Sequence record: NC_024786.1
Reading direction: 5' to 3' (one strand)
Origin: Escherichia phage vB_EcoP_PhAPEC5
DNA length: 64,000 nucleotides
In this document: positions 18,815-20,261 of the stretch, piece by piece
Position numbering within the stretch: position 1 is the first letter of the stretch
Layout of the letters: each line of letters starts with the position of its first letter
The notes under the pieces: model-generated
Seen by the model: only the letters and a program-made list of their open reading frames with translations
Told to the model about the DNA's origin: nothing
Databases searched by the model: none
Translations under genes and position numbers: made by a program

Positions 18815-19281
18815 TGACTAAGCTCTCCGGTGGCCTTAATAACTACTATGTAGTTCCAATTAAGAATCCCCAACGGAAAGAGCAAGAGCCATATCAAGCA
18901 GAGTGTGAGGATATTATCCAAGCACTTGGCATGACCTTCGATGAAGGTTGTGCCTTTAAAGCTCTATGGCGAAATGCTGCTGCCCGTATGGGTAATGGTA
19001 AACCTGGTAACAAAGCCCTGTATGACTGTGAGAAGCTGGTTCATTACGCTAATCGTATTCTAGCTAAAGAAAGGTTAGCAGATGAATTACTTAACCGGAA
19101 TAACACCACTATTGGAAGATGCTGGCATTACCCAGGAAAGGATAAACCTTACATAACAACGAACTTTCAATTCATTGAGGTAGCATACAAGGGTGAGTTG
19201 GATAATGTAGTCAGCTATAACTTCGATGAGATAGATGGTATTCGCTGGAACCAAGTTCACAGATACAGGATTACTTACTGA
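18814..19281 (+). CDS. hypothetical protein
   Basis: Start overlapping upstream stop; 155 aa. Confidence 0.4.
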   Translation: MTKLSGGLNNYYVVPIKNPQRKEQEPYQAECEDIIQALGMTFDEGCAFKALWRNAAARMGNGKPGNKALYDCEKLVHYANRILAKERLADELLNRNNTTIGRCWHYPGKDKPYITTNFQFIEVAYKGELDNVVSYNFDEIDGIRWNQVHRYRITY

Positions 19282-20261
19282 TGAAGATAACCAACAACCA
19301 TGATGTCTCGCTGGCCCTGGCTGTATGGCTATTACATGACGAATATGATTACGTAGACAATCCTAAGTACCTGTCTGCTACTACATTGCTTAAGCCTATT
19401 AAGCAAATCGTCATGAAGCATCGTGTAGATTTTAGTGACCAGTCAATTGATGTTATGGATTTCGTCTCCACATCAATGGGTACTGGCTTACATGACTCTA
19501 TTGAGAAAGCCTGGAAGCTAGGTCATAAGACTGCATTGAAGAAGCTAGGTTATCCTCAGCGAGTAATTGATGCAGTAGTCATTAACCCAACCAAAGCAGA
19601 CTTTGCTGCTAACCCTGACCTTATCCCAATCTACATTGAACAGCGTGGAACCAAGGTAGTTAAGGGTTGGACCATCGGTGGTAAGTTTGACATCGTAACG
19701 GAAGGTCTGTTGCAAGACTTCAAGTCTACCTCAACCTATTCTTGGGTTGCTGGTTCCCGTGATGATGAACACAAGATGCAAGGCAGCTTGTACCGTTGGA
19801 TTCACAACGACATCATTACTGAGGATGTAATTCGTATTAACTACATCTTCACCGACTTCATGAAACACATGGCTAATAGCAATCCAAACTATCCTGCTAA
19901 TCGTATTATGCATAAGGATATTCCGTTGCTGTCTGCTGAGAAGACTGAACGTTGGGTGGAAGAGAAGATTCACTTCATCGAAAAGTACTGGGATGCACCT
20001 GAAGAGGAAATCCCTGAATGTACTGACGAGGAGTTGTGGCGAACAGAGCCACAGTTCAAATACTTCTCTGATGCTTCTAAGGTAGATGTACCTGGAGCCA
20101 GAAGTACCAAAAACTTTGACGATATGGCATCTGCCCGTATCTTCATGGCTGAGAAAGGTGGCAAGGGTGCTATCAAGGTTGTGGAGGGGCAGGTTAAAAG
20201 ATGTCTTTACTGCCCTGTCGCATCTATTTGCAAACAAAGAGAGAGATATTTTCCATCATGA
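19281..20261 (+). CDS. PD-(D/E)XK-type nuclease with C-terminal Cys cluster (putative)
   Basis: Candidate D...DFK motif (GKFDIVTEGLLQDFKST) and C-terminal cysteines (PECTD...CLYCPVASIC) reminiscent of Cas4/RecB-family Fe-S nucleases. Confidence 0.35.
   Translation: MKITNNHDVSLALAVWLLHDEYDYVDNPKYLSATTLLKPIKQIVMKHRVDFSDQSIDVMDFVSTSMGTGLHDSIEKAWKLGHKTALKKLGYPQRVIDAVVINPTKADFAANPDLIPIYIEQRGTKVVKGWTIGGKFDIVTEGLLQDFKSTSTYSWVAGSRDDEHKMQGSLYRWIHNDIITEDVIRINYIFTDFMKHMANSNPNYPANRIMHKDIPLLSAEKTERWVEEKIHFIEKYWDAPEEEIPECTDEELWRTEPQFKYFSDASKVDVPGARSTKNFDDMASARIFMAEKGGKGAIKVVEGQVKRCLYCPVASICKQRERYFPS

Follow-up and report, generated by a model that had tools for sequence, protein, structure and literature searches.

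The phage exonucleases lambda Exo and RecE, which assemble into toroidal oligomers, are not known to carry a cysteine metal site. Some Cas4 enzymes act with other polarities than 5'→3' or as endonucleases. Replication of phage N4 depends on a 5'→3' exonuclease of the phage's own, which is given here as background and carries no weight in the argument. In phage recombination, a 5'-3' exonuclease prepares the substrate for the annealase, and adjacency to the gene of a single-strand annealing protein (SSAP) provides the context for recognising exonuclease-annealase modules (PMC2896510). The canonical metal-site layout of Cas4 and AddB features one N-terminal and three C-terminal cysteines, and the Fe-S "staple" of AddB-type enzymes joins the N-terminal cysteine to the C-terminal triad (PMC3466216). 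The Cas4 protein SSO0001 of Sulfolobus solfataricus (PDB 4IC1) is a 5'→3' ssDNA exonuclease that has been proposed to generate 3' overhangs (PMC3466216). The nuclease domains of AddB, AdnAB and RecB, for which end resection to 3' tails is likewise proposed, work with SF1 helicases, either as fusions or as partners. The gp42-type protein of N4-like phages described here belongs to the same nuclease class and the concept of a four-cysteine staple applies to it, but it is a stand-alone protein of 326 residues in which one of the ligands appears to have been relocated.

A gp42-type exonuclease gene

The window analysed is a stretch of 64,000 nucleotides from Escherichia phage vB_EcoP_PhAPEC5 (NC_024786.1). 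We identified an ORF at 19281..20261 on the plus strand, where all features described below are also located. It runs from ATG to TGA and encodes 326 residues plus the stop; its start overlaps the stop of the preceding gene as TGATG, and its stop overlaps the start of the following gene as ATGA. The product is 100% identical to the protein of Escherichia phage PhAPEC7 that is the orthologue of N4 gp42 and is named "exonuclease" in RefSeq, and it shares 71% identity with N4 gp42. In the PHROG search, residues 1–325 aligned with positions 2–324 of the 330-position profile phrog_2139 ("exonuclease", E=6.7e-152). The window protein is a full-length member of the N4 gp42-like exonuclease family, and the ORF represents a complete gp42-type gene encoding a Cas4-like PD-(D/E)XK exonuclease. 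Annotation artefact and wrong frame were ruled out by the full-length homologues and the clean start and stop junctions.

Clustering at 50% identity divides the family into 2553 clusters. In 470 phage records, the gene occupies a syntenic core position in the replication module, and UniRef names the product "PD-(D/E)XK endonuclease-like domain-containing protein". The family assignment is already known and annotated in public genomes, which makes the gene largely ordinary: as a correctly guessable, already annotated N4-like core gene, it matters little in itself. It has modest value in that so large and conserved a family seems to lack biochemical characterisation, even though N4-like phages are employed therapeutically and N4 is a classic system for the study of replication. 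In the literature searched, we found no biochemistry of gp42-type proteins, no paper that ties the N4 exonuclease activity to gp42 and no account of gp42 as a Cas4-like or Fe-S-binding protein.

Fold and catalytic motifs

The original prediction had proposed a PD-(D/E)XK nuclease and named profile similarity and structure prediction as checks. Both bore it out. In addition to phrog_2139, the second-best PHROG match was the Cas4-type phrog_1706 (E=1.5e-11). The window protein reached 17.8 bits against Pfam PDDEXK_1 (PF12705), below the gathering score of 22; the same model was matched by 22 of 45 family members (best E=9.8e-10), and a match to it is precomputed for three relatives. When compared by hhalign, a profile of 171 family sequences aligned almost end to end with the viral Cas4-like proteins AFV1 ORF223 and SIRV2 gp19 (probability 82%, E=1e-5), and every motif fell in register. 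NCBIfam gave no match for the window protein, and PDB searches at the sequence level, run with the window protein, the family profile, the divergent member P0142 and a profile of the insert discussed below, returned nothing relevant; only fold comparison succeeded. The AlphaFold (AF2) model of the window protein (pLDDT 91.8, pTM 0.82) was compared with the PDB using Foldseek, which gave SSO0001 (4ic1) as the best match (E=8e-7) and a probability of 1.00 for the top matches. RecE (3H4R) ranked fifth, and AdnAB, RecBCD, Exo5, MGME1 and lambda exonuclease were also matched. The top matches are all nucleases of the RecB/Cas4/RecE/Exo5/MGME1/lambda-exonuclease kinds, which identifies a restriction-endonuclease-like alpha/beta core, and a fold search of BFVD returned the N4-like orthologue followed by viral Cas4-like nucleases. 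Based on these similarities, gp42-type proteins are predicted to be metal-dependent PD-(D/E)XK nucleases of the RecB/Cas4 class.

Conservation was analysed in 171 representatives drawn from 50%-identity clusters and pairwise at most 50% identical. The residues H71, E120, D137, D146, K148, Q167 and Y171 are 100% conserved in this set, as are G67 and G134, while E75 is conserved in 97%. The motif I region G67-x3-H71-D-S-I-E75 (19479..19505) aligns with LGDILHLGLES of SSO0001 and with the histidine of AFV1 and SIRV2, and H71 is a predicted metal ligand. Motif II, G134-K-F-D137 (19680..19691), contains the predicted catalytic aspartate and aligns with GRiD of AFV1, SIRV2 and SSO0001. Motif III, D146-F-K148-S-T150 (19716..19730), provides the predicted (D/E)xK catalytic pair and aligns with IEfKT and IEIKTS of Cas4 proteins, whereas motif IV, Q167-G-S-L-Y171 (19779..19793), corresponds to the QxxxY of RecB/Cas4-class nucleases and aligns with QvslY and QLQIY. 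Since H71, D137, D146-x-K148 and Q167-x3-Y171 are in register with SSO0001, AFV1 and SIRV2, all catalytic motifs of the RecB/Cas4 class are present. The D...DFK arrangement tentatively suggested beforehand proved correct: it corresponds to D137 of GKFD and D146-F-K148, which are invariant and in register with Cas4. The histidine H71 and the Q167-GSL-Y171 motif did not figure in that earlier list. The catalytic residues and the four cysteines remain unchanged in proteins of only 24–26% identity from Leptospira, Pelagibacter, Planktothrix and Methanomicrobiales viruses, except that Y171 is replaced by leucine in the Pelagibacter phage protein.

An insertion of about 35 residues (roughly residues 85–118; 19533..19634) is specific to the N4-like clade and missing from the short-form relatives; it is gapped in P0142, P0145 and the proteins of LE4, vir555, Baldr and Pag-Yong1. 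In the AlphaFold model, it forms helices at residues 93–98 and 105–110 and a strand at residues 99–101.

The gp42-type protein is a distant relative of Cas4 and not a strict member of this family. SSO0001, its best structural match, aligned over nearly its whole length (TM 0.56–0.59 on the target) and shares with gp42 both the catalytic His, Asp, (D/E)xK and QxxxY, in register, and the C-terminal CX2CX5C triad. However, the two proteins are only ~16% identical, gp42 has ~100 extra residues (the insertion at residues ~85–118 and the insert at 248–307) and no CRISPR context, and the N-terminal "CPR" cysteine is absent from gp42, which has C247 instead. Of the four cysteines of canonical Cas4, gp42 has the triad and lacks the N-terminal residue. 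Only two of 45 family members touch PF01930, at E values of at least 0.014. SIRV2 gp19 and AFV1 ORF223, which are of the DUF83/phrog_1706 type, are, like gp42, stand-alone viral nucleases with the same fold. Unlike gp42, they combine the triad with a canonical N-terminal cysteine (AFV1 C40, SIRV2 C31), contain no nested insert and match Cas4 models end to end.

The four-cysteine site and the nested insert

The window protein contains exactly four cysteines, C247 in PECTD and C308, C311 and C317 in CLYCPVASIC. The last three form a canonical CX2CX5C triad (20202..20231) that is invariant, aligns with C206, C209 and C215 of AFV1 and shows the same pattern as CRYCAFNSIC of ACE1. The original prediction had described four C-terminal cysteines of the Cas4/AddB type. 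All four were found, but only three of them are truly C-terminal, as C247 follows the nuclease core and lies 61 residues upstream of the triad; the triad itself aligns with that of the viral Cas4-like proteins, but the N-terminal ligand of canonical Cas4 and AddB is missing and the post-core C247, which has no counterpart in canonical Cas4, is present instead. The expectation that the cysteines would be conserved in homologues held. Each is present in every one of the 171 representatives ungapped at that column (170 of 170 for C247), in the distant viruses described above and, together with the catalytic residues, in 72 of 74 short forms. Because of this invariance, a chance origin of the cysteines was rejected. 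C247 is located in the conserved segment P245-E-C247-T-D-E-E-L-W253 (20013..20039), where we infer it to be a relocated fourth metal ligand. Across the family, the first two cysteines of the triad are spaced from CX2C to CX4C, with CX3C or CX4C in most short forms.

The segment of gp42 that hhalign places opposite the "T-x-L-x-x-C-P-R" of Cas4 is S32-A-T34-T-L36-L-K38-P39-I-K41 (19374..19403) and contains no cysteine: C40 of AFV1 falls on P39, the "CPR" of Cas4 lies opposite "KP", and SSO0001 reads IYVTDLVRCPRRV at this position. None of the 171 representatives has a cysteine at positions 30–45, and the N-terminal cysteine is also missing in 73 of the 74 short forms. These alignments show that the N-terminal ligand has been lost, and the post-core C247 appears to replace it as fourth ligand. 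By analogy with Cas4, AddB, Exo5 and Dna2, a structural Fe-S cluster is the most likely occupant of the site formed by C247 and the triad.

Between C247 and C308 lies an insert of ~60 residues (residues 248–307; 20022..20201), which at the family level resembles a DUF2188 mini-domain. DUF2188 (PF09954) was matched by 17 of 34 distinct family inserts (best E=2.4e-6); the profile gave no match to the insert of the window protein itself, for which the link rests on alignment with the matching family inserts. The AlphaFold model of this region (pLDDT about 88–93) contains strands at residues 258–262, 277–279 and 297–301 and a helix at 282–291. With the N-terminal cysteine replaced by C247, the cluster would close the loop that holds the DUF2188-like mini-domain. 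It is conceivable, and we propose it tentatively, that the gp42 family represents an architectural variant of the "iron-staple" nucleases, in which the first ligand no longer sits in the N-terminal helix but in a "P-x-C-T-x-x-E-x-W" motif behind the core, and the mini-domain nested in the cluster-closed loop possibly docks an annealase, an SSB or the DNA end. If so, this would provide the first concrete functional context for the orphan domain DUF2188 and place a third structural class, widespread over the 2553 clusters, next to lambda Exo and RecE among the recombination exonucleases of phages. The ligand relocation and the nested domain seem undescribed. Together they offer a natural experiment on the purpose of the Fe-S staple and a handle on the orphan domain.

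Annealase neighbourhood and proposed role

The replication module of the window is arranged in the order PolA, gp40, gp41, exonuclease, primase, Sak4-like, SSB, in which the nuclease gene comes after gp41 and ahead of the gp43 primase gene, with gp44 and gp45 further downstream. This is the gene order of PhAPEC7 and N4, save for an extra HNH gene (20258-20773). The Sak4-like gene of the N4 gp44 type (22980..23732) was recognised by phrog_124 (E=8.6e-49) and by Pfam AAA_24, whose gathering score was exceeded (E=1.3e-10), and N4 gp44 is labelled "Sak4-like" in RefSeq. It is located 2.7 kb downstream of the nuclease gene in the same operon-like block, with the HNH and primase genes in between. 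The ORF directly after it (23773..24576) encodes 267 residues and corresponds in length and position to the "single strand DNA binding protein" of PhAPEC7 and N4; based on synteny and size, it is a probable gp45-type SSB and a presumed cofactor.

Across unrelated phages, this type of nuclease adjoins annealases that belong to five Pfam families, each match exceeding its gathering score. Its gene is found beside RecT in LE4, beside and overlapping a Rad52_Rad22 gene in vir555, beside ERF in Pag-Yong1 and beside SSAP_Sak in a metagenomic contig, and AAA_24/Sak4-like annealases occur near it in the N4-like phages and in six IMG/VR loci. An SSAP gene was identified in the flank of 14 of 25 independent short-form lineages, nearly always directly downstream and on the same strand. 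The flanks of the other 11 contain no recognised annealase; these include the largest lineage (41 loci), where the neighbours are a methylase, a metallophosphoesterase and an endolysin, and where a phrog_862 neighbour is a candidate for a novel annealase. Proximity to an SSAP gene, the mark of the exonuclease of a two-component phage recombinase, is thus found for gp42-type genes, though it is not universal. Searches of 80 IMG/VR loci by phmmer with RecT, vir555 Rad52-type and N4 Sak4 seeds gave no matches, and the Sak4-like genes in IMG/VR loci were recovered only via PHROG/Pfam annotation of neighbour clusters. The ORFs reached by the iterated "Erf" HMM were also those reached by the "Sak" HMM, and each was counted once.

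The association with SSAPs of five Pfam families (Sak4-like, RecT, ERF, Rad52 and Sak) in unrelated phages suggests a recombination exonuclease that resects DNA ends together with gp44 and gp45; lambda Exo and RecE genes are likewise adjacent to that of a single-strand annealing protein. We consider it likely that the gp42-type protein, with its rearranged four-cysteine site, is the end-resecting nuclease of the phage's own recombination/replication module. In its active site, H71, D137 and D146 are the predicted ligands of the catalytic Mg2+ or Mn2+ and K148 is the predicted catalytic lysine, while Q167 and Y171 would hold the terminal nucleotide. The enzyme would digest one strand at DNA ends, in the 5'→3' direction by analogy, and so provide 3' single-stranded tails for the gp45-type SSB to coat and the Sak4-like gp44 protein to anneal. 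Such action would help the terminally redundant N4-type genome to replicate by recombination and to form concatemers.

The position of the gene between those of a polymerase and a primase would also suit a nuclease of the replication fork, removing 5' flaps or primers in the manner of Dna2 or Exo5 and processing Okazaki fragments for the N4 DNA polymerase. N4-type polymerases have no 5'-3' exonuclease domain (PMC2784036), Exo5 is among the fold matches, one family member weakly touches the Exo5 Pfam model, and the SSAP-less short-form lineages neighbour PolA, DnaB and a loader-like ATPase. However, the recurrent partner in unrelated phages is an annealase rather than a polymerase or primase, and LE4, vir555 and the locus L010 show the exonuclease-plus-SSAP pairs typical of Red/RecET-like modules, so that we regard a fork nuclease as unlikely, while noting that the two roles are not mutually exclusive. 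Far more improbable is a role in counter-defence, either as a CRISPR-related Cas4 that skews host spacer acquisition, as proposed for the Cas4 of a Campylobacter phage, or as a nuclease degrading host DNA. A link between Cas4-like genes of phages and the acquisition of CRISPR spacers has been reported (PMC4283603), one homologue bears the annotation "CRISPR-associated exonuclease, Cas4 family", and DUF2188 has been computationally tied to defence contexts, with the inserts weakly touching PADLOC PDC-S16. Against this, the window protein matched no PADLOC model, and the short forms touched the PADLOC Cas4 models over the catalytic core only (E~1e-5), whereas the viral control AFV1 matched them over its full length (8e-20). 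The cut-off of TIGR00372 is 65 bits, and the only protein to touch this model, P0142, reached 18.5. No CRISPR-like arrays were identified within the window, and the gene belongs to the core replication module in the 470 phage records. A strict Cas4 or CRISPR function was rejected on the basis of the sub-cut-off TIGR00372 score, the core-only PADLOC matches and the lack of CRISPR-like arrays in the window.

The nature of the metal bound by the four cysteines bears on the site itself, and the enzymology and biological role would otherwise be the same with structural zinc in place of an Fe-S cluster. The DUF3799 protein EUBREC_2131 (PDB 3L0A), a phage/bacterial RecE-like nuclease and a weaker, partial fold match of gp42 (E=4e-3, 136 aligned columns), has an equivalent four-cysteine metal site that was occupied by Zn in the crystal (PMC3466216); its ligands follow the canonical order, while those of gp42 are rearranged. 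A rearranged ligand set would be compatible with zinc, and a tetrahedral Zn site could tolerate the variation from CX2C to CX4C. On the other hand, the CX2CX5C pattern of the triad is identical to that of Fe-S-binding proteins of the Cas4, AddB and ACE1 type, SSO0001, the best match by structure, contains a [4Fe-4S] cluster, and Zn in overexpressed Fe-S proteins can be an artefact (PMC3466216). We view zinc as the less likely of the two.

With either metal, end resection within the phage's own recombination/replication module remains our preferred reading of gp42-type proteins. As the nuclease pairs interchangeably with five annealase families, recombineering toolkits might draw on it as a general resection partner for hosts where lambda Red performs poorly.

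The gp42 exonuclease and its nuclease fold

The gp42-type exonuclease gene is an ATG-to-TGA ORF at 19281..20261 (+) encoding 326 aa. Its start codon shares a TGATG overlap with the stop of the upstream gene, and its stop shares ATGA (20258-20261) with the start of the next one. This region shows 98.9% DNA identity to Escherichia phage vB_EcoP_PhAPEC7, an N4-like podovirus (Schitoviridae, genus Gamaleyavirus). The encoded protein and its PhAPEC7 counterpart, which RefSeq names "exonuclease, similar to gp42 of phage N4", are 100% identical; identity to N4 gp42 is 71%. Full-length homologues were identified by tblastn in 470 phage records, and the organism names listed for these matches are those of N4-like phages infecting Vibrio, Pseudomonas, Escherichia, Klebsiella, Erwinia, Achromobacter, roseobacters and others. 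The genes run in the order PolA, gp40, gp41, exonuclease, primase (gp43), Sak4-like (gp44) and SSB (gp45). Published N4-like genome papers treat the gp42 gene as a conserved core gene, its label moving from "unknown" in 2009 to "exonuclease" in 2025. Proteins similar to gp42 and gp45 have also been reported from SDS-PAGE/MS of purified virion preparations of roseophage vB_DshP-R7L (PMC11934525), where replication proteins would not be expected; contamination or packaging may account for this.

The original prediction, made from sequence, placed this protein among the PD-(D/E)XK nucleases as Cas4-like, and three independent lines of evidence (profiles, structure and conservation) allow us to affirm this class with high confidence. 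The window protein matched phrog_2139, annotated "exonuclease" (E=6.7e-152), and the Cas4-type phrog_1706 (E=1.5e-11). Its Pfam PDDEXK_1 score of 17.8 bits fell below the 22-bit threshold; this family was matched by 22 of 45 family members (best E=9.8e-10). A 171-sequence gp42 family profile aligned by hhalign with the archaeal-virus Cas4-like proteins AFV1 ORF223 and SIRV2 gp19 (Prob 82%, E=1e-5; residues 22-324 vs 22-222). The AlphaFold2 model, based on a 45-sequence alignment, had a mean pLDDT of 91.8 and pTM of 0.82. Its top PDB match was Cas4 SSO0001 of Sulfolobus solfataricus (4IC1; E=8e-7, probability 1.00, TM 0.56-0.59 on target), with the target aligned almost whole, followed by RecE, AdnAB, RecBCD, human Exo5, the DUF3799 protein 3L0A, MGME1 and lambda exonuclease. 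In the viral structure library, an N4-like orthologue (TM 0.90) preceded viral Cas4-like/DUF83 nucleases.

Among 171 representatives with pairwise identity of at most 50%, H71, E120, D137, D146, K148, Q167 and Y171 were 100% conserved, and the four cysteines were kept in all representatives ungapped at the column. Catalytic residues and cysteines persist at 24-26% identity in Leptospira, Pelagibacter, Planktothrix and Methanomicrobiales viruses, except Y171, which is replaced by Leu in the Pelagibacter phage protein. Among full-length IMG/VR short forms, the shorter homologues of gp42, the catalytic motifs were present in 74/74 and the cysteine layout in 72/74. H71, D137, D146/K148 and Q167/Y171 align with the corresponding His, Asp, ExK and QxxxY residues in SSO0001, AFV1 ORF223 and SIRV2 gp19. 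The tentatively predicted "D...DFK" arrangement corresponds to D137 (in GKFD) and D146-F-K148; H71 and Q167-GSL-Y171 had not been listed. Both the profile comparison and the structure prediction proposed as checks led to Cas4-like proteins and, because nuclease similarity exists and the cysteines are conserved in homologues, the interpretation is supported. The observation holds and was read correctly, yet it is already known and ordinary: public annotation reads "exonuclease" (RefSeq) and "PD-(D/E)XK endonuclease-like domain-containing protein" (UniRef).

Cysteine layout and the nested insert

The window protein contains exactly four cysteines: C247, within "PECTD", and C308, C311 and C317, within "CLYCPVASIC" (CX2CX5C). 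All Cas4 and Csa1 proteins have three C-terminal cysteines and a fourth near the N-terminus, and AddB has the same arrangement, its cluster being described as a "staple" (PMC3466216; PMC5704561). In gp42 the predicted Cas4/AddB-type site is rearranged: four cysteines are invariant and the triad is canonical, whereas the N-terminal ligand is absent and C247 is found instead. C308/C311/C317 align with C206/C209/C215 of AFV1, and the triad pattern of ACE1 is the same. The N-terminal motif remains discernible (gp42 YLSATTLLKPIKQIV vs SSO0001 IYVTDLVRCPRRV vs AFV1 YLTVTQISQCPRRS), but the Cas4 cysteine aligns with gp42 K38/P39, where 0 of 171 representatives carry a cysteine; among short forms, only 1 of 74 has it. 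C247 follows the nuclease core, in a segment that canonical Cas4 lacks, as part of a conserved P-x-C-T-x-x-E-x-W motif. Because C247 and the triad are co-invariant and no other cysteine is conserved, we infer that C247 probably packs against the triad. Between its first two cysteines the triad is spaced CX2C in N4-likes, CX3C in 64 short forms and CX4C in 8, with the CX5C part constant. N4-like proteins also carry a clade-specific insertion of ~35 aa, at roughly residues 85-118. In two short-form ORFs (L020 3059-3994 and L023 4986-5921) the C-terminal "EIDIRCENYC...VRDICKNYRKT" is tandemly duplicated, which may be either an artefact of assembly or a genuine doubling of the metal-binding motif.

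gp42 is not a Cas4 in the strict sense. PF01930 was weakly touched by 2 of 45 family members, and TIGR00372 scored 18.5 bits vs a 65-bit cut-off. PADLOC Cas4 models gave no match to the window protein and matched short forms within the core only; the AFV1 control matched end to end (8e-20).

The ~60 residues separating C247 and C308 are confidently modelled as strand, strand, helix, strand. Pfam DUF2188 was matched individually by 17 of 34 distinct family inserts (best E=2.4e-6), and no other family recurred among the 34. N4-like inserts, including that of the window, are too diverged to match alone, so that their assignment rests on alignment with the short forms; on this basis, we propose a putative DUF2188-like domain nested in the C247-C308 loop. 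The relocated first ligand and this nested domain appear undescribed in the literature searched. The short-form insert also weakly touched the PADLOC candidate defence model PDC-S16 (E=0.003-0.046; residues 225-250 of P0142 and 225-251 of the ORF at L001 4001-4909), consistent with published computational work that ties DUF2188 to conflict systems.

Annealase neighbourhoods and proposed role

The strongest functional clue for gp42 is gene context across unrelated viruses. Single-strand annealing proteins (SSAPs, or annealases), each called above the Pfam gathering score, were found beside the nuclease as RecT in Leptospira phage LE4, Rad52_Rad22 in a Methanomicrobiales virus (genes overlapping) and ERF in Planktothrix phage Pag-Yong1. 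SSAP_Sak lies directly downstream in a metagenomic contig, and AAA_24/Sak4-like accompanies the nuclease in all N4-likes examined and six IMG/VR loci; in the window, the HNH and primase genes intervene. An SSAP was present in the fetched flank of 25 of 80 IMG/VR short-form loci. These loci represent 14 of 25 lineages (delimited at ≥60% identity), and in nearly all cases the SSAP gene is the next one downstream in the same orientation. No recognised annealase was found in the fetched flank in 11 of the 25 lineages, including the largest (41 loci). A nuclease that stays the same while its annealase partner changes is the arrangement by which Red/RecET-like two-component recombinases are recognised; in these, the substrate is prepared by a 5'-3' exonuclease (PMC2896510). 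Systematic linkage of the nuclease with five families of annealase appears undescribed in the literature searched.

The 41-locus lineage (L021-L061 and relatives) resembles Pelagibacter phage Baldr. A C5 cytosine methylase gene precedes the nuclease with ~22 nt overlap; an HslV-like protein, a calcineurin-like metallophosphoesterase (weak SbcD/Mre11-type PHROG match) and an endolysin follow. Its 204-aa upstream protein, phrog_862, is a candidate unrecognised partner.

SSO0001 is a 5'->3' ssDNA exonuclease proposed to make recombinogenic 3' tails (PMC3466216); biochemical characterisation of the gp42 family was not found in the literature searched. From this activity and the annealase linkage across viruses, we propose that gp42 would resect DNA ends to 3' tails, that these would serve gp45-type SSB and the Sak4-like gp44, and that resection would support recombination-dependent replication and concatemer formation. 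We consider this full proposal likely, and a recombination role for gp42 somewhat probable. A replication flap or primer-processing nuclease of the Dna2/Exo5 type, compatible with the recombination model, would suit the 5'-3' exonuclease domain missing from N4 polymerases (PMC2784036) and the position of the gp42 gene between polymerase and primase genes, but it leaves the annealase linkage unexplained and is rather unlikely. Concerning the cofactor only, Zn rather than the predicted Fe-S is a possibility of some weight, if not one we favour, as the DUF3799 nuclease 3L0A, also a fold match of the gp42 model, carries Zn at the equivalent site (PMC3466216). With TIGR00372 far below cut-off, window gp42 free of PADLOC matches and no CRISPR-like arrays within the window, a CRISPR-related or counter-defence Cas4 is highly improbable.

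Mobile elements and neighbouring features

A free-standing HNH/AP2-type homing endonuclease gene (20258-20773, +; phrog_99 E=1.6e-64; Pfam HNH_3) slots exactly between exonuclease and primase, with ATGA overlaps at 20258-20261 and 20770-20773. PhAPEC7, with its 100% identical exonuclease, lacks this gene, and its exonuclease and primase genes overlap directly; G7C-like relatives carry the gene. Two ORFs, at 15227-16918 and 17589-18512 (both +), make up the split family-A DNA polymerase gene. Between them lie an HNH endonuclease ORF (16992-17525, +) and a full-length group I intron-like Rfam match (17304-17557, +; 38 bits, below the gathering score of 50; E=3.7e-7), in agreement with the PhAPEC7 annotation "located in intron of DNA polymerase". 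The gp44 gene (22980-23732, +; 250 aa) is uninterrupted in the window, whereas the annotation of PhAPEC7 gp44 (L003 10079-11627) joins two pieces across an intron-encoded endonuclease; the window therefore stems from a close relative with different mobile-element insertions.

N4-type genomes have rightward early and middle genes and leftward late genes. Cumulative GC skew of the window peaks near 30 kb and then declines, presumably as a coding-strand switch would give; every ORF examined, from ~13 to 26 kb, lies on the + strand.

The gp41-like ORF (18814-19281, +; 155 aa, phrog_9919) has an N-terminal region of ~88 residues that also matches C-terminal parts of several other PHROGs, one being phrog_7063, annotated 3'-phosphatase/5'-polynucleotide kinase (E=1.4e-19). 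A gene annotated polynucleotide kinase/phosphatase sits just 5' of the exonuclease in many relatives, and the N-terminal region looks like a shared small domain beside the nuclease.
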